Shown one piece after another: positions 7,192-16,337 of a DNA stretch of 32,000 nucleotides. Position 1 is the stretch's first letter; each line of letters opens with the position of its first letter. Source of the stretch: Promethearchaeota archaeon (GTDB taxonomy: Archaea > Asgardarchaeota > Hermodarchaeia > Hermodarchaeales > Hermodarchaeaceae); the NCBI GenBank assembly GCA_048938295.1, contig JBHLMI010000008.1:30001-62000 (forward strand), given 5' to 3'. The notes below the pieces were generated by a model. The model saw nothing but the letters and a program-made list of their open reading frames with translations. It searched no databases and was not told where the DNA came from. Made by a program: the position numbers and the translations under genes.

Positions 7192-10100
7192 ATGTCTTCA
7201 TACGAGCGAGACCCAAATACCGTCAACGGTGACGACGAGCCACGGTTTCGACTCTTTTTTGAAAATGCGCCCCTCTATTGTTATATGGTTTCACCTCAGG
7301 GAATCATTCTGGACATTAACAAAGCTGCTCTCAAGGTGTTAGGTTACACACGAACAGAACTAATTGGCAAACACATTCGCTCTATCTACGCACCAGAATG
7401 TGAGGATAAGGCTAAAGATCTGTTTATTTCGTGGGAGAATGAGGGTACAATTACTGATGAAGAGCTCATTATCCAAACTAAAACTGGTGAACAGCGTATC
7501 GTTCTCTTAAATGCGAACGCGATTCACGAATCTGATGGATCCTTAGCCTATTCGATTTCGATTCAGCAAGATATCACTGAGTTAAGACAAAAGAAAGATG
7601 AGCTCAAGGAAAGCCAAAATGCTTTGAAAAAATCTGAAAAGGAAAAATCTGTGATTCTGGATAATATTTCAGAACACGTTATCTTTCAAGATTTGGAGAA
7701 CCACATCATTTGGGCTAACCGTGCTGCTGCTGAATCGGTGAACAGCAGTGTAGAGGAACTTGTTGGTAAAAACTGCTATGAAGTGTGGAACCAGCGAGAT
7801 ACACCCTGTATTGAGTGCCCTATCGTCATGGCTAGGGAAACCGGTGTTATTCAAGAACATGAGATGCGTACACCTAACGGTCGTGTATGGCATGTGCGTG
7901 GGTATCCACTTTATGATGAGAGTGACACTTTAATCGGTTGTGTTGAGGTCACTCGTGACATCACAGAGCGAACGAGGGTTGAAGAAGCGTATCACAAACT
8001 TGTTGATCAATCAATTCAAGGTCTATTAATTATCCAAAATGGAAAGGTCGCCTTCGCGAATCCAGCGTTTCTCCGAATAAGTGGCTATACAGAGGAAGAA
8101 GTCTTAGCCTTTAGTCCCTGGCAGATATTTGATATCATTCATCCGGATGATCGGAATGTTCCCTGGGAACAGCTGCAGAAAATCATACAGGGCGAACCGG
8201 TTTCAACTACCATGGAGTTGCGTGGAATTCTAAAGGATGGTACCGAACGCTGGTTTGAACTTTCATTAGCTGTTATCGAATACCAAGGTCAACTGTCAAC
8301 GCAAGTAACGATTATGGATATCGACGAGCGTAAAATGATTGAAGAAGCAATCCGACTCGAAAGGGATTGGGCTCAACGGTATTTGGACATGGCAGGGGTC
8401 ATGTTCATTGCTGTTGATACAAAAGGGAATATCACTTTAGTTAATCAAAAGGCCCTCGAGATTTTTGGATACTCAGAAGAGGAAATGATAGAACAGAACT
8501 ACTTCGATTTGTGTATACCTGAGTCATTACGTGCTGAAATGAAAGGGAAATTCCGCGCTAACATGGCTGGAGAAATTGAACCACGTGCTTTTGTTGAGAA
8601 CCCAATCATTACCAAAGACGGCGCAGAAAGACTCGTATCATGGCACACCACTATGTTCTATGATCCCTCCGGAAATCCGATTGGTGCCCTAACAGCAGGA
8701 GAAGACATAACTGAACGCAGATTTGCAGAGAATCTACTACGAAAAGAAAGGGATCGAGCTCAACAATACTTGGATATGGCAGGCGCTGCATTTATCGGAG
8801 TGGATAGGAATCAAAATATTTTTCTCGTTAATAGAAAAGGCTGCGAGATTTTTAGCTACTCAGAAGCTGAACTTTATGGTCAGAATTACTTCGACTTATG
8901 CATCCCTGAAAGACTTCGTGAGGAAATGAAAGACCGATTTGAACGGGCCATGGTAGGAACATTTCAGTTAAGCGAATATGTTGAAAATCCTATTAAGACT
9001 AAACAAGGCACCGAGCGGATGATTCTTTGGCATACTACTGTACTTGAAGATGAGGAAGGAAATAAAACAGGGATCCTGAGTTCTGGAGAAGACATTACGG
9101 AAAGAAAATTTGCAGAAGAAGCTCTGCGCGCCTCAGAGGAAAAATTCCGTTCTCTTGTAGAGGACACCACGGATTGGGTATGGGAAATTAACCGTGAAGG
9201 AAGACTTGTCTATTCAAACAGTGCAGTTGAAGACATACTCGGCTATACTGCTGGACAAATCATTGGGAGATCCTTCTTCGATTATATGGATTCTACAAGT
9301 GTAGAAAATGGTGAAGTTATGTTCACTGAAACGGTTGAAAAGCAGAAACCGTTTAAGAATCTCGTGGATCGCTTCATTCACCGAGATGGTAACATTGTGA
9401 TTCTGGAAGGCAGTGGTCGACCAGTCTTTGATGAGCAGCAACATTTAATCGGTTATCGAGGGGTATGCCGTGACATCACGGAACGTATGCGGGCTGACCA
9501 AATCCTCCGAGAATCCGAATCTCGGTATCGCTCCTTAGTTGAGACATCTCCTGACGCTATTACGCTTACGAATCCAGATGGAATGATTGTCTTAGTCAAT
9601 GAACGCGCTGTTCAATTGTTGGGCTTTAATAATCCTGGTGAACTGAGAGGCAGGAATTGCTTTGATTTCATCGTCCCCGAAGAGCGAAACCGGGCCATTG
9701 AAACTTTGAAAAGCACCAAAGAGCATGGACCGTCAGTTCCCCTTCTCTTCAATCTCATTCAAAAAGATGGTAAGATTTTTCCAGCGGAGATCAGTGCCTC
9801 ACTTCTCATTGGAGCAGCGGGTAAGGCATCAGGATATATTATTGTTGCTCGTAACATCACTGAACGCAAACAAGCCGAACAAGCCTTGAGAGAGGCTAAA
9901 GCGCGGTCAGAGTTCTTCACAGACCTGATGGCCCACGACCTCAACAATATCAACCAGGCTATCCTCTCTGGAATAGAGTTACAGCTGATGAATCCAGAGC
10001 TCCCAGAAGAGCTACGTACACAACTTCAGTTATCCTTAGAGCAAGTGGAACGAAGTGCGGCTTTAATTGGACGTGTCAAGAAATTCTCAGGGATGGATGA

Positions 10101-10584
10101 AGTTCAAACCCTTATGGACATTCGCGACATAGAACCTGACTTTCGTTCTGCCTTAGAAGCAGTCAAGCAGGCTTTTCCCAAGAAGACTATCCTCGTTGAT
10201 ACCAACATTCATCCTGAAGAATTCAAAGTCTTAGCAGATGACTTCCTTGTGGATTTATTTTACAATCTCCTACACAACGCGGTGAAATTTGATCACAATG
10301 AAAAAGTCGACCTTGAAGTGAAAATCTATCCTGACACGAATAAACGTTTCCTCCGTGTAGAAATCAGCGATCATGGTCCAGGAATCCCGGGTGACTTGAA
10401 AGAGCGGATTTTTGCCCGGTACACACAAAAGGTGGGTGAGAAAGCTCAGGGATCCGGTATCGGCTTAACACTTGTTCAACGCATCATCGATCGATTTGGA
10501 GGTCAAATCTGGGTCGAAGATCGGGTCAAGGATACCTATACCCAAGGTGCAAAATTCATTTTTCTCCTCCCAATGTGGACGTGA
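7192..10584 (+). CDS. Cytosolic multi-PAS sensor histidine kinase (7 PAS + HisKA + HATPase)
   Basis: Seven PAS repeats ending in DITE-type motifs; H-box AHDLNN, N-box NLLHNAVKF, G1 DHGPGIP, G2 GSGIGL; no TM segment. Confidence 0.95.
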   Translation: MSSYERDPNTVNGDDEPRFRLFFENAPLYCYMVSPQGIILDINKAALKVLGYTRTELIGKHIRSIYAPECEDKAKDLFISWENEGTITDEELIIQTKTGEQRIVLLNANAIHESDGSLAYSISIQQDITELRQKKDELKESQNALKKSEKEKSVILDNISEHVIFQDLENHIIWANRAAAESVNSSVEELVGKNCYEVWNQRDTPCIECPIVMARETGVIQEHEMRTPNGRVWHVRGYPLYDESDTLIGCVEVTRDITERTRVEEAYHKLVDQSIQGLLIIQNGKVAFANPAFLRISGYTEEEVLAFSPWQIFDIIHPDDRNVPWEQLQKIIQGEPVSTTMELRGILKDGTERWFELSLAVIEYQGQLSTQVTIMDIDERKMIEEAIRLERDWAQRYLDMAGVMFIAVDTKGNITLVNQKALEIFGYSEEEMIEQNYFDLCIPESLRAEMKGKFRANMAGEIEPRAFVENPIITKDGAERLVSWHTTMFYDPSGNPIGALTAGEDITERRFAENLLRKERDRAQQYLDMAGAAFIGVDRNQNIFLVNRKGCEIFSYSEAELYGQNYFDLCIPERLREEMKDRFERAMVGTFQLSEYVENPIKTKQGTERMILWHTTVLEDEEGNKTGILSSGEDITERKFAEEALRASEEKFRSLVEDTTDWVWEINREGRLVYSNSAVEDILGYTAGQIIGRSFFDYMDSTSVENGEVMFTETVEKQKPFKNLVDRFIHRDGNIVILEGSGRPVFDEQQHLIGYRGVCRDITERMRADQILRESESRYRSLVETSPDAITLTNPDGMIVLVNERAVQLLGFNNPGELRGRNCFDFIVPEERNRAIETLKSTKEHGPSVPLLFNLIQKDGKIFPAEISASLLIGAAGKASGYIIVARNITERKQAEQALREAKARSEFFTDLMAHDLNNINQAILSGIELQLMNPELPEELRTQLQLSLEQVERSAALIGRVKKFSGMDEVQTLMDIRDIEPDFRSALEAVKQAFPKKTILVDTNIHPEEFKVLADDFLVDLFYNLLHNAVKFDHNEKVDLEVKIYPDTNKRFLRVEISDHGPGIPGDLKERIFARYTQKVGEKAQGSGIGLTLVQRIIDRFGGQIWVEDRVKDTYTQGAKFIFLLPMWT
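8362..9135 (+). repeat. Intragenic tandem duplication of a 129-codon PAS unit
   Basis: RDWAQRYLDMAG (8362) and RDRAQQYLDMAG (8749) are 387 nt apart; both contain QNYFDLCIPE and VENPI. Confidence 0.85.
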
Positions 10585-10661
10585 TCCCAAGTTTACAATT
10601 TGGGATGAGAGATTAAGATGGTGTAAAACGAAGCGTAATAAGGAACTGGTGTGTAACACGC

Positions 10662-10877
10662 TTATTGTTTCCAGCGCCGCCGTGCTGCTAGCCAGCAAAT
10701 CAAGGTAAAAGCAAACAGAAAGACTCCAGTAAGCACTAACACCTCACCAAGAAACTGCAGGTTCAACAGAAAGGCTACGCCTCCTGCAACAAGGATGGTG
10801 AACCCAATCACAACAGAAAACCCGATCGCTAATCGAGATGAACCAGAAAAGGGTGTTGAGGACTCATCAGAAGACAT
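10662..10877 (-). CDS. Putative small 2-TM protein
   Basis: MSSDESSTP...LICWLAARRRWKQ; two hydrophobic helices, basic C-terminus; overlaps the possible 5' extension of the next gene. Confidence 0.45.
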   Translation of the reverse strand: MSSDESSTPFSGSSRLAIGFSVVIGFTILVAGGVAFLLNLQFLGEVLVLTGVFLFAFTLICWLAARRRWKQ

Positions 10878-11535
10878 GGAACGACCGACTCCAAGGGCCT
10901 TAATCTTATACTTGATAATTGCTGTCACTATAACCCTTTTAGTCTATTTCCTGCCCCAACCCTTCTTCCTTGCTATTCCAACTGCTATCGTCTCTGCTGG
11001 CTTACTCAGCTGGATGGGTATTCCATCCGTGGCTCTGGTCGATTGGATATCGGGAGTAGTTTATGTTTACGTGATTGGATTCCAATATTACCAAATTGTA
11101 CGGGAATGTACAGGCATCCAAGTAATTGCAGTGTTCATGGGTCTGATTCTTCCGCTGCCCCGTGGAACCTGGTCCAGGAAAATCCTTGCTGTTGTTGTTG
11201 TAACTATTCTTCTGTTTGTAGCCAACGTCTTACGAGTCGTTTTTGAAATCTGGCTCGTCTACATGGGGATTCTCCCCTGGGAACTTGCTCACTATCCCAT
11301 GAGTTTCGTTTTAGGAGTAGTAGGGGTCTTTGTCCTTTGTATCGTGGCCATTTTTCTGGTACCAGGCTTTATCGAAACCTTTGAAGATATGATTTACTAC
11401 CTTTTTCCACCAAAACCCAAGAACAGCGATGCAGTCGAATCATCAAACACAGAAAAGTCTCCTAGCAATTTTAAAAAACCAAGCCCAAACCCGATGAGAC
11501 TAAAAATCAGTAGAGGGTTCGGTTTATACTTCTAA
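10795..11535 (+). CDS. Archaeosortase/exosortase family protein (start 10795 or 10876)
   Basis: Multi-TM with Cys (IVRECTG), Arg (NVLR) and His (AHY) triad pattern. Confidence 0.8.
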   Translation: MVNPITTENPIANRDEPEKGVEDSSEDMERPTPRALILYLIIAVTITLLVYFLPQPFFLAIPTAIVSAGLLSWMGIPSVALVDWISGVVYVYVIGFQYYQIVRECTGIQVIAVFMGLILPLPRGTWSRKILAVVVVTILLFVANVLRVVFEIWLVYMGILPWELAHYPMSFVLGVVGVFVLCIVAIFLVPGFIETFEDMIYYLFPPKPKNSDAVESSNTEKSPSNFKKPSPNPMRLKISRGFGLYF

Positions 11536-11547
11536 AGGCGCATTGGC

Positions 11548-12231
11548 TTATTTTTCAGCCCATTGCAATGGCTTGGTTTCATTATAGATTAACCATCGAG
11601 TATCCACCCGAGTACCTCGAAGATGATGTAACCGAATTTTGTGTCTGAGCTGGCTTTTGTCTTCTTCATCACAGATTTCTATAACACCATCCACGGAGAA
11701 TCGCAAAGTTGCTACTACATCGTTTGTATGAACTCCTTCCTCAAGAAGGTAGATTCCAGTTACGCCACGATCCTTCACCCGAGCACAGAGGACTTGGAGG
11801 AATTTTATAACGGATAGTGGTGCTGAATAAGTCATCAAAGTTGTCAAGTTATCAAGGCAGAGGTGACCATTCTCAAGGTCAGCAATCGCTTGAAGAAGGA
11901 GTAAACTAATTGTATTCAGGTCATAGAGATTCTGAAATGAATACGGTTCTTTAGAGGGTTGAGCTGTAACACAAGAAACCCCATCAGCTATCCGAAGCTG
12001 GGAGGCTACTGGCTTTCCTCCGATTTGGCTAAGAGTCTGGCGTATTTGGGCAGGGGACCAGAGAGTCGTAGCAAAAACGGCGGGTTCTTTTACCTTTAGC
12101 CGATCAGCTAAATAGCGTAGAGCAAGGGTAGTTTTCACCACACCAGGAGGTCCAATGAGAAGTAGTTGTGATCCCCTTGGAAGCTCAAAAGCACCCTGGG
12201 GAACAAATGTTGGACTAATAAGGTCAATCAC
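11548..12231 (-). CDS. RAD55/KaiC-like ATPase, predicted inactive
   Basis: Walker A GPPGVVKT (G to V), catalytic EE replaced by LW, Walker B LCLDN, HLRG finger retained. Confidence 0.85.
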   Translation of the reverse strand: MIDLISPTFVPQGAFELPRGSQLLLIGPPGVVKTTLALRYLADRLKVKEPAVFATTLWSPAQIRQTLSQIGGKPVASQLRIADGVSCVTAQPSKEPYSFQNLYDLNTISLLLLQAIADLENGHLCLDNLTTLMTYSAPLSVIKFLQVLCARVKDRGVTGIYLLEEGVHTNDVVATLRFSVDGVIEICDEEDKSQLRHKIRLHHLRGTRVDTRWLIYNETKPLQWAEK

Positions 12232-12931
12232 TATCGATTCCTCCTTGCAGGTATAGTCCTTCTTTCCCGACCTTCATTTCGTACCATTTTGTCTCATGCT
12301 GCACTCCAATTAGACTATATATACGGAGAAACCAGTCAAGTGAGCCCTTTGGTTCAGCAACAGTCTTGGTATGAATTGACCCTTGAACCAAGGATCGAAG
12401 ATTTGTGGTCAGTTTGGCATCATGGGCTTGGTCTTCTAAGACGAGGATGAGAATTTTGTTGAGAGTAATGATGCGCTGTGCGATACTGTGAACAAAAGTC
12501 CGGATGCGTTGTTCATCAGGAGCAGACAGACTAAGTCCTGAAACCGAATCGATGATGATAACCGAACCCGGTTTCAAAAGCTTTGCTTGATCAATCATTA
12601 TTAGATTGACTTCGTTCAGATTTCCGGGATTATTAATTCGATTAAAGGCAAAGGGATCAGTGTGCATTCCAATTCTCCAGCTATAAGCGTCCACAAAATA
12701 GATGGGGAGTTTCCCCGGCTGAGCGGGGAACGGAATTCCAAAACCACGAGCTTGCTGGACAAGTGTGGAAGGTGTGTTTTCTGTGGAAAGATACAGGACA
12801 TCAAGTCCATTATTCGCTGTATCCAATGCAAATTGGAGACTAAAACATGTTTTACCCGACCCTGGTTGTCCAACTAGGACGATACTCGTTCCTTTTGGGA
12901 GCCCACCCTGTAGGATTGGGTCGAGGATCAC
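12224..12931 (-). CDS. RAD55/KaiC-like ATPase lacking the Arg finger
   Basis: GGLPKG, Walker A GQPGSGKT, STEN, Walker B IIIDS; KMRG replaced by SLIG; GTG start after GAGGGG. Confidence 0.9.
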   Translation of the reverse strand: MILDPILQGGLPKGTSIVLVGQPGSGKTCFSLQFALDTANNGLDVLYLSTENTPSTLVQQARGFGIPFPAQPGKLPIYFVDAYSWRIGMHTDPFAFNRINNPGNLNEVNLIMIDQAKLLKPGSVIIIDSVSGLSLSAPDEQRIRTFVHSIAQRIITLNKILILVLEDQAHDAKLTTNLRSLVQGSIHTKTVAEPKGSLDWFLRIYSLIGVQHETKWYEMKVGKEGLYLQGGIDSD

Positions 12932-13126
12932 GATAGCCCCCTCTGTTCTCTTATTCGCACCTCAGATTGGCTCTGTAGCCAAGTTCATAATCTAGCTCTC
13001 CTGAATGGGAATAAAGCTTTTGGGAAGTCTGTAGTTGTTCATGGTTATATTGAGGAGAGACGGAAACCTCTTAAGCCATCATCTTGGTACTTGAATAGTA
13101 GGAGACTTACTAATCGGGGGATTAGT

Positions 13127-13867
13127 GTGGCTGAAAAGACAAAATCAGGTATACCAGGCTTAGATGAAGCATTGCATGGTGGATTTCCCACAGGCTCAGT
13201 GATTCTAATTAGTGGTGGACCGGGTACCGGCAAATCCATTCTACTAAACCAGTTTCTCTTCAATGGTGCGTCACAATTCAAGGAACCTGGGATCCTCGTC
13301 TCTATGGAAGAGTCACTCGCGTCGACGATTAGGAACATGAAACAATTTGGTTGGGATATGCAAGAACTCATGGATAAAGGCTTAATCGCCTTGGTCGATG
13401 CTTCGCCAATGATACAGAATGAACGTATTGTTCTCAAACCTGAGCACCCTGTTCTTGGACGAGAAGAATTTACAATGGAATCACTACTGTCCTTGATACA
13501 TCGTGAAATTCGACGCGTGAAAGCCAAACGTGTGGCCATCGACTCGATTTCGACCCTAACCCTCCAACACAAAGACCTCTTCCGGATTCGACACGACCTG
13601 CTTAACATGGTTCGTTCCCTTCGAATGAGTCAAGCCACCTGCTTGGTGGCAGTGGAAAGCCCCAACGAAGATAGCATCGGACGATTTGACGTCGAAGGCT
13701 TCCTTATGGACGGAGTCATTATGATGAAACTCATGAGCCAGGGAGCGATCCGCATACGAACTATCGAAATTAACAAAATGCGTGGAACAAACCATCAAAT
13801 GAATCCCCTACTCCTCATAATTGGAGAAAAAGGCATTCAAGTCTCCGACCTACCACCCATTCAATAA
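13127..13867 (+). CDS. Single-domain KaiC/RAD55-like ATPase, catalytically intact
   Basis: SGIPGLD...GG, GGPGTGKS, SMEES, VAIDS, KMRG; GTG start at 13127 after GGGGG. Confidence 0.93.
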   Translation: MAEKTKSGIPGLDEALHGGFPTGSVILISGGPGTGKSILLNQFLFNGASQFKEPGILVSMEESLASTIRNMKQFGWDMQELMDKGLIALVDASPMIQNERIVLKPEHPVLGREEFTMESLLSLIHREIRRVKAKRVAIDSISTLTLQHKDLFRIRHDLLNMVRSLRMSQATCLVAVESPNEDSIGRFDVEGFLMDGVIMMKLMSQGAIRIRTIEINKMRGTNHQMNPLLLIIGEKGIQVSDLPPIQ

Positions 13868-13964
13868 CCTCGATGAAAAATACCAGAATGAACCGACTAG
13901 CTTAAATCTCAACAAATGAAAGGAAATACCTGAGGGAAAAATCAACTGGGTTTGGTGACAAAAA

Positions 13965-14504
13965 ATGCGCCCCCAAAGCAGCCGTTACATGTTCAAGGTT
14001 TCGGTAATTGGCGATTACGCCGTGGGAAAAACCTCCCTAATTAAACGTTATATGACGGATTCCTTTGATGAAGGGTATAAAGCAACTCTTGGCGCTGCTA
14101 TTTCCTCGTTCCAAACCAGCGTAAAGGGATCTGATGTCGCGCTGCAAGTTTGGGATCTAGCAGGCCAAACCTCCTTCCGTAGAGTTCGGGTACAATATCT
14201 ATTCGGCACTGATTTCGCGATCGTGGTATTCGATTTAACAAGAAAAGATTCTTTGGACTGTGTTAAAGAATGGGTGAGTGATGTAAGGCAGGGTGCGCCT
14301 GAAGTACTCCTATTCCTTGTTGGTAATAAGGCAGATTTGAAGGAAGATCGAGTGGTGAACCCTGTGGCTGCTGAGAAAGTCGGAAAAAGTTTGAATATGC
14401 TTGGCTACCTTGAGACCTCCGCAAAGGAAGGAACCAATGTCAAAGAACTCTTTCACATCATTTCCGAATACCTCTTAGAACATACATTCACTGTAATAAA
14501 ATGA
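13965..14504 (+). CDS. Rab-like small GTPase (Ras superfamily)
   Basis: G1 GDYAVGKTS, G2 T (KATLG), G3 WDLAGQ, G4 NKAD, G5 ETSAK; no C-terminal Cys. Confidence 0.95.
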   Translation: MRPQSSRYMFKVSVIGDYAVGKTSLIKRYMTDSFDEGYKATLGAAISSFQTSVKGSDVALQVWDLAGQTSFRRVRVQYLFGTDFAIVVFDLTRKDSLDCVKEWVSDVRQGAPEVLLFLVGNKADLKEDRVVNPVAAEKVGKSLNMLGYLETSAKEGTNVKELFHIISEYLLEHTFTVIK

Positions 14505-15979
14505 CAAAAAAGGTGCTCGAACGCGTGACACTCCCAAGGGAAATCACTGAATTCCTGAACGAGGAACAGGGACAAACTCTACTCATCAAAGGAAAATCAG
14601 GAACTGGAAAATCCACACTAGCCTTATCCTTACTTGGTCATCTAGCCGAGACCCTACCTAAGAAATTCAGTGTTGAAAACTTTGTGTACCTTTCAACGCG
14701 TGTTGCAAGCTCGAGTCTGAAATCCCAATTTCCTTGGGCGTTTCAATTGCTTTCAGAAAATCAAATCATCGATGCGACACCATCGCTCATGGGGCTTCCT
14801 GAAACCACCTTAGCGTGTGGGGAGTCATCTAACAATCGGATGGTGTACTCCGATGAGTTGACGTTCATTAGCGCAGTAAATGATCGATTGCGGAACTTGA
14901 CCAATCCTGTGTGTGTCATTGACTCATTTGATGCGATTATCGAAGCCGCGCAAGCTGACCCCCAGCGCCTGACAAGCGCATTAACGAATCTTGGTCGCAT
15001 CCTATGCGGTAAAATCATTCTTATTGTCGAAGGTATTGAGGAGTCGACGTTAGATCATATAGTCGATGGTATTGTATGCGTCACTAAGGAATTCACGGCA
15101 GAGCGGATGTGGCGTAGTCTTCGGCTAATCAAGCTCCGTGGTACGCCAATTGATCAAAGTATGCGAGGATTTTCTCTTCGGGGGAGTCGTTTTACCATTT
15201 TGCATTCATTTGATGCAGAACAAGCCAACCGCGTATCAGATTTCGAGGTCATCGCCCACTCTGGTGGTCGATTTTCGTCAGGAGTCCCAGAACTAGATAC
15301 GGTTTTTGGCGGTTTCAGACGAGGAAGCACATTCTTCATTGATGTCGCCGAAGGCGTCGCCAACGAAACGGTTCACAGTCTAATCTTCAGCATGGTGGCG
15401 AACTTCCTACGCCAAGACAGCGGTGTTGTCATTGTTCCACCAAACAAACTGAGCTTCCGGCGACTCAAAGCAGCCTCACTTCGCTACGGATTTGTCGACC
15501 AACTCAACACACGCCTCCGCTTCTTCGCAAGTGCAGCGACTAGCCTAGGCGTTTCTAGTGCAACTGGAGAACTTGGTGAACCATATTACAAAACCGTGGC
15601 ATTCCGTGAAAGCTCTGATCTTGAGAATGCTTGGAGTATGGTGGTAGAAGAACTCAGAAATCAAGGGTGCAAAAACTTACTAAGCGTAGTAGGCTTTGGT
15701 TGGTTGCATTCATGGTTAGGCCCAACCGAATTACCACGTTGGGCTACGCGGATTGCCAATGATACCGCTACGGAAAGTAACCTAGCAGTCACCATAGGCT
15801 ATAGCAGTACAAAGGATATAAACCGATATCTGGCAGATTTAGCAGACATTCACGTTCAGTTAGCAGTAAAGGAAGGAGTCACAGTCTTTCATGGAATCAA
15901 TCCCTCGACTCCTCAATACTGCATCTACACACACCTTGTGGAGGGAAACCCACAAATTGGCTTCCAAGAAATCGGATAA
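14501..15979 (+). CDS. GvpD-like tandem RecA/RAD55-fold protein (N-domain with intact P-loop, degenerate C-domain)
   Basis: TLPREITEFL...TLLIKGKSGTGKS, VIDS, KLRG; second domain SSGVPELD..GG without P-loop; ATGA overlap with the GTPase. Confidence 0.75.
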   Translation: MTKKVLERVTLPREITEFLNEEQGQTLLIKGKSGTGKSTLALSLLGHLAETLPKKFSVENFVYLSTRVASSSLKSQFPWAFQLLSENQIIDATPSLMGLPETTLACGESSNNRMVYSDELTFISAVNDRLRNLTNPVCVIDSFDAIIEAAQADPQRLTSALTNLGRILCGKIILIVEGIEESTLDHIVDGIVCVTKEFTAERMWRSLRLIKLRGTPIDQSMRGFSLRGSRFTILHSFDAEQANRVSDFEVIAHSGGRFSSGVPELDTVFGGFRRGSTFFIDVAEGVANETVHSLIFSMVANFLRQDSGVVIVPPNKLSFRRLKAASLRYGFVDQLNTRLRFFASAATSLGVSSATGELGEPYYKTVAFRESSDLENAWSMVVEELRNQGCKNLLSVVGFGWLHSWLGPTELPRWATRIANDTATESNLAVTIGYSSTKDINRYLADLADIHVQLAVKEGVTVFHGINPSTPQYCIYTHLVEGNPQIGFQEIG

Positions 15980-16337
15980 GATTCGCATCCTATTAGCAGA
16001 TGATTCACCACACTTTCTCCGTTCAGCTCAGCTACTCCTTCGTGACTATGATATTGAAACTGCACTTGATGGGGAAGAGGCTCTCGCTAAACTTAAGGCT
16101 AATCCACCAGACATCTTCTTCGTGGACCTAGTACTGCCAAAAATTCGGGGTACCGACCTCATTCGCCTAGTCTCAAAGGAGTACCCTGACATTGCCATTG
16201 TCGCTTTGACTGCTATCGATGATCATGAAACTGTACAAGAAGTCATGGATTTAGGTGCAAAAGGTTATCTGATTAAGCCTGTATCATCGGATACCTTCAA
16301 GACAGAAATCAAGAAACATACCGAGTCTAGCGATTAA
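15957..16337 (+). CDS. Stand-alone response regulator receiver
   Basis: ADDS, phosphoacceptor VDL, ALT, IKP; probable TTG start at 15957 after GGAGGG, overlapping upstream stop. Confidence 0.92.
   Translation: MASKKSDKIRILLADDSPHFLRSAQLLLRDYDIETALDGEEALAKLKANPPDIFFVDLVLPKIRGTDLIRLVSKEYPDIAIVALTAIDDHETVQEVMDLGAKGYLIKPVSSDTFKTEIKKHTESSD

Follow-up and report, generated by a model that had tools for sequence, protein, structure and literature searches.

Two overlapping KaiC-family genes with reciprocal active-site motifs in a Hermodarchaeia signaling locus

The DNA analyzed here, called the window below, is a stretch of 32,000 nucleotides (nt) from a Promethearchaeota archaeon of the family Hermodarchaeaceae (GenBank assembly GCA_048938295.1, contig JBHLMI010000008.1, positions 30,001 to 62,000). 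The genome that carries it comprises 2.5 Mb in 66 contigs and is 91.6% complete. Between positions 11548 and 12931 of the window lie two overlapping genes, A and B, that encode single-domain proteins of the KaiC family and whose active-site motifs are altered at complementary positions. The closest database proteins to both are named Promethearchaeota and Hermodarchaeia. A sequence-only reading of the window had described the two open reading frames and their 8-nt overlap, and all three are present on the minus strand.

The gene pair and its active-site motifs

The genes and their junction comprise the following features:

12224..12931, minus strand: gene A, single-domain KaiC-family ATPase, 235 amino acids (aa), GTG start (PF06745, 98.9 bits)
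11548..12231, minus strand: gene B, putative single-domain KaiC-like pseudo-ATPase, 227 aa, GTG start (PF06745, 65.3 bits)
12224..12231, minus strand: 8-nt overlap of A and B, GTGATTGA, made up of the start of B and the stop of A (TGA), read directly
12239..12244, minus strand: GGAGGA, a Shine-Dalgarno-like element for B within the last codons of A, read directly

An in-frame TGA lies 11 codons upstream of the GTG of A with no start codon in between, so that A has no start farther upstream. Across the orthologous loci, A stood directly upstream of B in every case, and the start of B was preceded by a GGAGG-like element within the last codons of A. The two genes overlap by 8 nt in the window and at three other loci, and at three more they are 1 to 4 nt apart. 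These junctions indicate translational coupling of A and B in the loci examined. A nearly invariant Gly-Gly near the C terminus of A is encoded by the same GGAGG that is the ribosome-binding site of B (window positions 12232 to 12246 and the orthologous junctions), and its codons may therefore bear a double constraint. At three loci (L014, L015, and L022), no canonical start codon was found at the position homologous to the start of B, and L015 had no candidate start at all within 60 nt; B in these three loci may use a noncanonical start codon or begin further downstream. Of 19 family genomes, 14 to 15 had both A and B, and four, with a completeness between 74 and 87%, had neither; two apparent exceptions to this co-occurrence were located at contig ends. 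In all, roughly 40 genomes have A together with B.

In the CI domain of KaiC, Lys224 and Arg226 of the neighboring subunit contact the gamma-phosphate, and Glu183 helps position the catalytic water (PMC9599734). The premise of the sequence-only reading that KaiC active sites are completed in trans by a neighbor's Lys/Arg is thus established for these two residues. Motif states at the corresponding positions of A and B were followed through two orthologue sets (51 sequences related to A and 56 related to B, reaching down to ~45 to 57% identity), with the counts below referring to orthologues that cover the region:

12848..12871, minus strand: Walker A of A, GQPGSGKT (Lys27/Thr28), intact in 47/47 orthologues
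12776..12787, minus strand: STEN of A, with Glu51 aligned to the first Glu of KaiC EE, Glu in 49/49 orthologues
12548..12550, minus strand: Walker B Asp128 of A (in IIDS), present in 52/52 orthologues
12305..12316, minus strand: SLIG of A at the KaiC KxRG position, without Lys or Arg, Arg in 0/52 orthologues (I, V, or L instead)
12130..12153, minus strand: degenerate P-loop of B, GPPGVVKT, second Gly replaced by Val and Lys33 kept, Gly in 0/48 orthologues
12058..12069, minus strand: TTLW of B in place of the catalytic EE, acidic residue in 0/51 orthologues
11851..11853, minus strand: Walker B Asp127 of B (in LDN), kept in 55/55 orthologues
11614..11625, minus strand: HLRG of B, with Arg205 at the KaiC Arg226 position and His203 at the Lys224 position, Arg in 52/52 orthologues

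These states at aligned positions indicate that A has a complete cis pocket without a trans finger and that B has a crippled pocket together with a trans Arg. Profile alignment placed the hLRG of B on the kMRG of PH0284, a KaiC-like protein of Pyrococcus horikoshii, and on the kfRG of KaiC, and placed the ATTLW of B on ALEE; the SLIG of A aligned with the KMRG of a canonical KaiC encoded next to the pair. Glu166 of A (in LVLED) and Glu164 of B (in LLEE) aligned with KaiC Glu183, while of the KaiC E77/E78 pair A keeps the first Glu only and B keeps neither. A full trans KxR(G) finger is found in neither chain, as A lacks both Lys and Arg and B has the Arg only. Once the motif coordinates were checked, the earlier description of A (GQPGSGKT, the Glu in STEN, and Walker B kept, with SLIG at the finger site) agreed with what we found. 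For B, the broken P-loop, the LW in place of EE, and the retained finger Arg held up. One correction concerns the Lys of KxRG, which neither protein has; its position is occupied by His in B and by Ser in A.

Conservation of the substitutions had been named as a check, and the complementary states proved to be fixed over ~50 orthologues of each protein. At the position of the second P-loop Gly, B orthologues have V, A, I, or T, and the last P-loop residue is T or S in A orthologues and Ala in ~10 of those of B. Four residues of B (G27, P29, K33, and R205) are invariant, as are R203 and G209 of A, with S206 and L207 of A nearly so. Such strong conservation of the degenerate regions suggests that they are constrained surfaces under purifying selection and not decaying relics. 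The reciprocal pattern extends to a deep-branching genome (GCA_024275415.1), in which the A-like protein has GKPGSGKT, TTEN, and ELLG and the B-like protein has GPPGSAKI, TMTL, and YVRG.

A sequencing error in the P-loop of B was also considered. Contigs from three sediment samples of one study, two of which are possibly the source of this DNA, had no letter differences in the P-loop codons of B. Since these contigs agree and the second Gly is gone in every orthologue, such an error is ruled out. With regard to expression, no RNA data set was listed among the public runs that contain this DNA.

Family placement and genomic neighborhood

The PF06745 (KaiC) scores of both proteins exceed the gathering cutoff of 26.6 bits. 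B also exceeded the cutoff of DUF7504 (PF24336; 54.8 bits against a cutoff of 27), and A fell below it (17.4 bits). Membership in circadian clock KaiC (TIGR02655/NF006799) requires two tandem KaiC domains, and A and B, both single-domain proteins, lie outside it, with 54.4 and 50.5 bits, respectively, against the NF006799 cutoff of 408. Scores of A against the models for RadB (37.4 bits; cutoff, 172), Sms (31.7 bits; cutoff, 403), and RadA (16.9 bits; cutoff, 259) were low, and B had no match to the NCBIfam equivalog models for RadA, RadB, and Sms. Because scores against these specific models are all far below their cutoffs, the term "RAD55 family" is only a broad COG label on database entries. 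We therefore dropped the name "RAD55-like," under which the pair had first been described, and assign both proteins to the KaiC family (PF06745) and not to the Rad55 recombination mediators. Among the neighbors of the pair, no DNA-repair genes were found; the context is signaling. The ArlH/FlaH model likewise gave 58.6 bits for A against a cutoff of 215, and the surrounding genes are signaling and not arl genes. With respect to a link to Elp4/5/6, neither A nor B matched PAXNEB at an E value of 0.01 or better, and a faint match was seen for the canonical KaiC neighbor only.

AlphaFold2 returned confident KaiC-like RecA domains for both proteins, with mean predicted local distance difference test (pLDDT) scores of 89.2 (A) and 94.1 (B). 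In Foldseek searches with the B model, the best match was PH0284 (PDB 2dr3; template modeling score of 0.80 over ~215 residues), followed by 2w0m/SSO2452, KaiC CI, and FlaH. PH0284 was also the best sequence match of B (E value of 9.6e-16), and the profile match of A to 2dr3 spans residues 3 to 228. Both A and B align over the entire KaiC CI domain. In a quick tree, A and B were each monophyletic (branch values of 100 and 99, respectively) and sat on long stems within the DUF7504-like family, clearly separate from canonical KaiC, in a topology with 50 of 98 inner branches unresolved and a poorly resolved backbone. The B profile recovered three 50%-identity representatives above 200 bits before dropping to 128 bits for the next, so the B clade is small.

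A third KaiC-family gene lies next to the pair:

13091..13867, plus strand: canonical single-domain KaiC (GGPGTGKS, EE, KMRG), a possible third partner (PF06745, 222 bits)

This gene is encoded divergently, 160 bp from A, and its synteny with the pair holds at each of the ten related loci that were examined. It belongs to a nine-gene arrangement that is syntenic through the genus (window positions 13091 to 16337 on the plus strand, with 7192 to 11535). Leftward, the module includes a PAS histidine kinase, an archaeosortase-like gene, B, and A; rightward, it includes the canonical KaiC, a Ras-like GTPase, a GvpD-like two-domain ATPase, and a stand-alone receiver. The sister genus has the same module without the Ras-like GTPase. 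In the deep-branching GCA_024275415.1 (L023:1646-6220), the receiver, GvpD-like, and KaiC genes run leftward, and the A-like, B-like, and Ras-like GTPase genes run rightward in one co-directional series, which ties the GTPase to the A-B operon.

In more distant Asgard genomes (loci L019 and L020), one DUF7504-like gene comes after a canonical KaiC, with Ras-like GTPases close by. At L019:1907-8525, two Ras-like GTPases, a WD40 protein, a roadblock-like protein, and a thioredoxin-like open reading frame accompany the canonical KaiC and one DUF7504-like protein that keeps both its P-loop and its Arg (GPLGSGKT, TTD, ERMRG). At L020:1158-2468 (minus strand), the DUF7504-like KaiC domain (GPPGVGKS, TTS, HHLDG) has Asp at the finger position and is fused to a C-terminal receiver domain; its gene comes after the canonical KaiC and a Ras-like GTPase. 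Elsewhere in the wider family, adjacent pairs were seen at two loci. Both copies at L025:548-2047 look dead (TTPGINNT in one; in the other, GPPGKEKN and an Asn at the Walker B Asp position). At L027:393-2339, the first copy combines GPPGVGKL and HHLRG with a Tyr at the Walker B Asp position, and the second pairs a deviant P-loop (GLPGTMKS) and a single Glu with a full KMRG. A further SLIG-type protein (P0151) has an unrelated membrane protein as its neighbor. The genome carrying the window has ~9 KaiC-family genes, with the best KaiC match (262 bits) on another contig (G000:C44:15425-16129), so that the genome also encodes finger donors elsewhere.

A shared active site and its alternatives

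We propose, with a probability that we put at roughly 0.5, that A and B are two subunits of one hetero-oligomeric KaiC-like ATPase in which Arg205 of B completes the pocket of A. A would hold Mg-ATP in its complete cis pocket (Lys27/Thr28, Glu51, Asp128, and Glu166) and, with Ser-Leu-Ile-Gly at the KxRG finger position, could not stimulate a neighbor. B would be a pseudo-ATPase, its P-loop lacking the second Gly and, in some lineages, carrying Ala for Thr, and its catalytic Glu being absent; its contribution would be the invariant Arg205, inserted into the pocket of A across the subunit interface. Hydrolysis would then be confined to interfaces between an A pocket and a B finger, and the interface between a B pocket and an A face would be noncatalytic, an arrangement that would be that of V1/A1 A3B3, F1 alpha3beta3, and Torsin-LAP1. 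Through translational coupling, both chains would be made together, and the pair would act as one element of the conserved signaling module.

Physical association of A and B is suggested by their coupling, their co-occurrence, and their reciprocal constrained surfaces, and structure prediction leans slightly in the same direction. A complex of A, B, ATP, and Mg was given a score of 0.50 (runs of 0.50, 0.02, and 0.51), compared with 0.06 for the best of three controls. The A-B runs shared at least 92% of contacts, with partner pLDDT values of at least 89. Of 80 solved complexes, 58 reached the mark applied to such scores, as did 2 of 110 mismatched pairs; only 7 of those 80 complexes, but both of the passing mismatches, reached it with a score at or under 0.60. 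We infer the stoichiometry (ring or dimer) and the dependence of the ATPase activity of A on B. "AND gate," the term used in the sequence-only reading, is a fair description of what the pair is predicted to do and not a result. Dividing pocket and finger between two co-translated chains does make for a sharp prediction, namely, that activity should appear only on mixing and be lost with B R205A. It is also possible, although we consider it rather doubtful, that the two proteins form an obligate alternating A3B3 ring whose ATP turnover reads out heteromer assembly, making it a coincidence detector in an archaeal signaling hub. Such a ring would be fixed in one lineage of Asgard archaea, where it would be connected with a two-component system, a Ras-like GTPase, a canonical KaiC, and a GvpD-like ATPase.

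Several observations weigh against a shared A-B site. The A-B complex score of 0.50 falls in a range in which most passes are false, one of the three runs scored 0.02, and the prediction reported no interface. Because KaiC-family rings have already been solved, the pass may also reflect memory of homo-oligomers. With the Lys of KxR gone in both proteins, the finger offered by B would be Arg only. A and B do not come out as sister clades in the quick tree, and a recent tandem duplication followed by complementary loss lacks support from it. Motif states in the wider DUF7504-like family are mixed, and no complementary pair was found among the adjacent pairs at L025 and L027; being neighbors is therefore not enough, in this family, to imply sharing of an active site.

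The canonical KaiC, which has an intact KMRG and is encoded beside the pair in every case, could take over the role of B toward A. The pocket of A might be completed by the finger of the canonical KaiC, or all three proteins might occupy one ring, with B as a regulator, cap, or adaptor. The canonical KaiC has the full EE and KMRG set and is syntenic with the pair in every related locus examined, and the arrangement at L019 and L020, where a canonical KaiC is directly followed by one DUF7504-like gene, suggests that the ancestral partnership was between KaiC and a single protein of this kind. However, the tightest and most conserved linkage is that of A with B, which share a strand, an overlap, and a Shine-Dalgarno-like element inside A, whereas the canonical KaiC is on the opposite strand in its own operon. 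Pairing with the canonical KaiC would also leave the invariant Arg of B without a target, unless that target were the canonical KaiC itself, which already owns a finger, and the reciprocal motif pattern is most simply explained by an A-B interface. We regard completion of the A pocket by the canonical KaiC as improbable. Alternatively, the two proteins may share no active site at all. A could be a lone ATP switch, a slow ATPase supported by K+, or a nonhydrolyzing nucleotide sensor like ArlH/FlaH, and B could be a nucleotide-free scaffold of the iKaiC type (inactivated KaiC-like domains) in which Arg205 is structural or binds a partner. Loss of the Arg need not silence A, which may be active without a partner, since RadA and Rad51 use K+ ions in place of the Lys/Arg stimulators (PMC9599734), and iKaiC domains are, as presented in PMC5847659, an established class in archaeal signaling. 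Many DUF7504-like relatives keep Arg or Lys at the finger position whatever the state of their P-loop, and other adjacent pairs in the family are without complementarity. What such independence leaves unexplained is why the Arg is lost in 52 of 52 A orthologues and kept in 52 of 52 B orthologues, and why translational coupling is conserved; we consider it unlikely, though deserving of some weight. The gene order and tight coupling also resemble a two-domain KaiC cut in two, with A as CI and B as CII, stacked as two homomeric rings, and both true KaiC and the GvpD-like neighbor are two-domain proteins. A ring of A would have no finger, however, and a ring of B no pocket, so that both rings would be dead. 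A and B are also placed within the single-domain DUF7504-like family and not with canonical KaiC, they score far below the circadian KaiC cutoff (54 and 50 bits against 408), and no fused A-B protein was found among proteins of 399 to 2,000 aa, although this last point is weak evidence. A split KaiC is, in our estimation, very improbable. A shared A-B site is the reading that we favor.

Comparison with known systems

KaiC-like ATPases, including iKaiC, have been proposed as the main native signaling hubs of archaea (PMC5847659, citing Makarova et al. 2017), and the A-B module, given its signaling gene surroundings, fits that proposal in the form in which this source relays it. The iKaiC partners described through the same source (citing Makarova, Galperin, and Koonin 2017) resemble A and B in being single-domain KaiC-family proteins, one live and one degenerate, encoded with two-component or other signaling genes. 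In contrast to the iKaiC pairs, as far as these are described in PMC5847659, the loss in A and B is reciprocal, with the live A lacking the trans finger and the dead B retaining it.

The CI ring of cyanobacterial KaiC (e.g., PDB 4tl7) has the same RecA-like fold as A and B and, in KaiC, ATP is bound at the subunit interface with Lys224/Arg226 of the neighbor (PMC9599734). KaiC differs in being a two-domain homohexamer and autokinase with KaiA and KaiB as partners, whereas A and B are single domains that split the cis and trans elements between them. PH0284 (PDB 2dr3) is closer in form, being a single-domain KaiC-like protein of the same domain size, and its entry has six chains. Unlike A and B, it has the full motif set in one chain (GGPGTGKT, EE, and KMRG), and with its motifs complete in this way a homomer suffices.

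Rad55-Rad57 and the Rad51 paralogue complexes are heteromers of RecA-superfamily paralogues with an unequal need for their ATPase sites. Databases label A and B "RAD55 family ATPase"; the two differ from these complexes in their RadA, RadB, and Sms scores and in their signaling context. A nucleotide-blind, Arg-donating partner is the principle embodied by the delta-prime subunit of clamp loaders, and the B subunit of V/A-type ATPases lacks a canonical P-loop. As in the proposed A-B ring, catalytic and noncatalytic subunits of the RecA/F1 class alternate in V1/A1 A3B3 and in F1. In F1 alpha3beta3, the noncatalytic subunit gives the Arg finger (alpha Arg373; PMC9599734). V1/A1 and F1 are, in contrast to A-B, rotary motors of a different family with a central stalk, and the A-B locus encodes no stalk or membrane sector. 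Torsin is a finger-less ATPase activated by LAP1, a protein of related fold that has no nucleotide-binding motifs and supplies a strictly conserved Arg, and the LAP1/LULL1-Torsin system has been proposed to form a ring in which the two alternate, (LAP1-Torsin)3 (PMC4358337). This system differs from A-B in being AAA+ and not RecA/KaiC, eukaryotic, membrane anchored, and not homologous at the family level.

The principle of a finger-donating pseudo-ATPase is thus already known from Torsin-LAP1, F1, and V1/A1, and pairs of live and dead KaiC proteins are a recognized theme. Literature searches on DUF7504, on Asgard KaiC with GTPase, and on KaiC hetero-oligomers turned up nothing relevant, and we found no earlier description of a reciprocal split of pocket and finger in a coupled KaiC-like pair, fixed over a whole lineage of Asgard archaea. 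To our knowledge, hardly any of the KaiC-like ATPases of archaea have been studied biochemically. Because the conserved Asgard module that includes A and B also encodes a small GTPase of eukaryote-like type, the pair offers a tractable entry to how such GTPases are wired into archaeal signaling. If the proposed sharing is correct, "inactivated" KaiC domains can be functional activators and not relics. Since the design principle is known from AAA+ and F1/V1 ATPases, the gain would lie in family and context and not in a new mechanism; an A3B3 ring, if it exists, would give the KaiC family its first counterpart of the catalytic/noncatalytic rings of F1/V1 and Torsin-LAP1.

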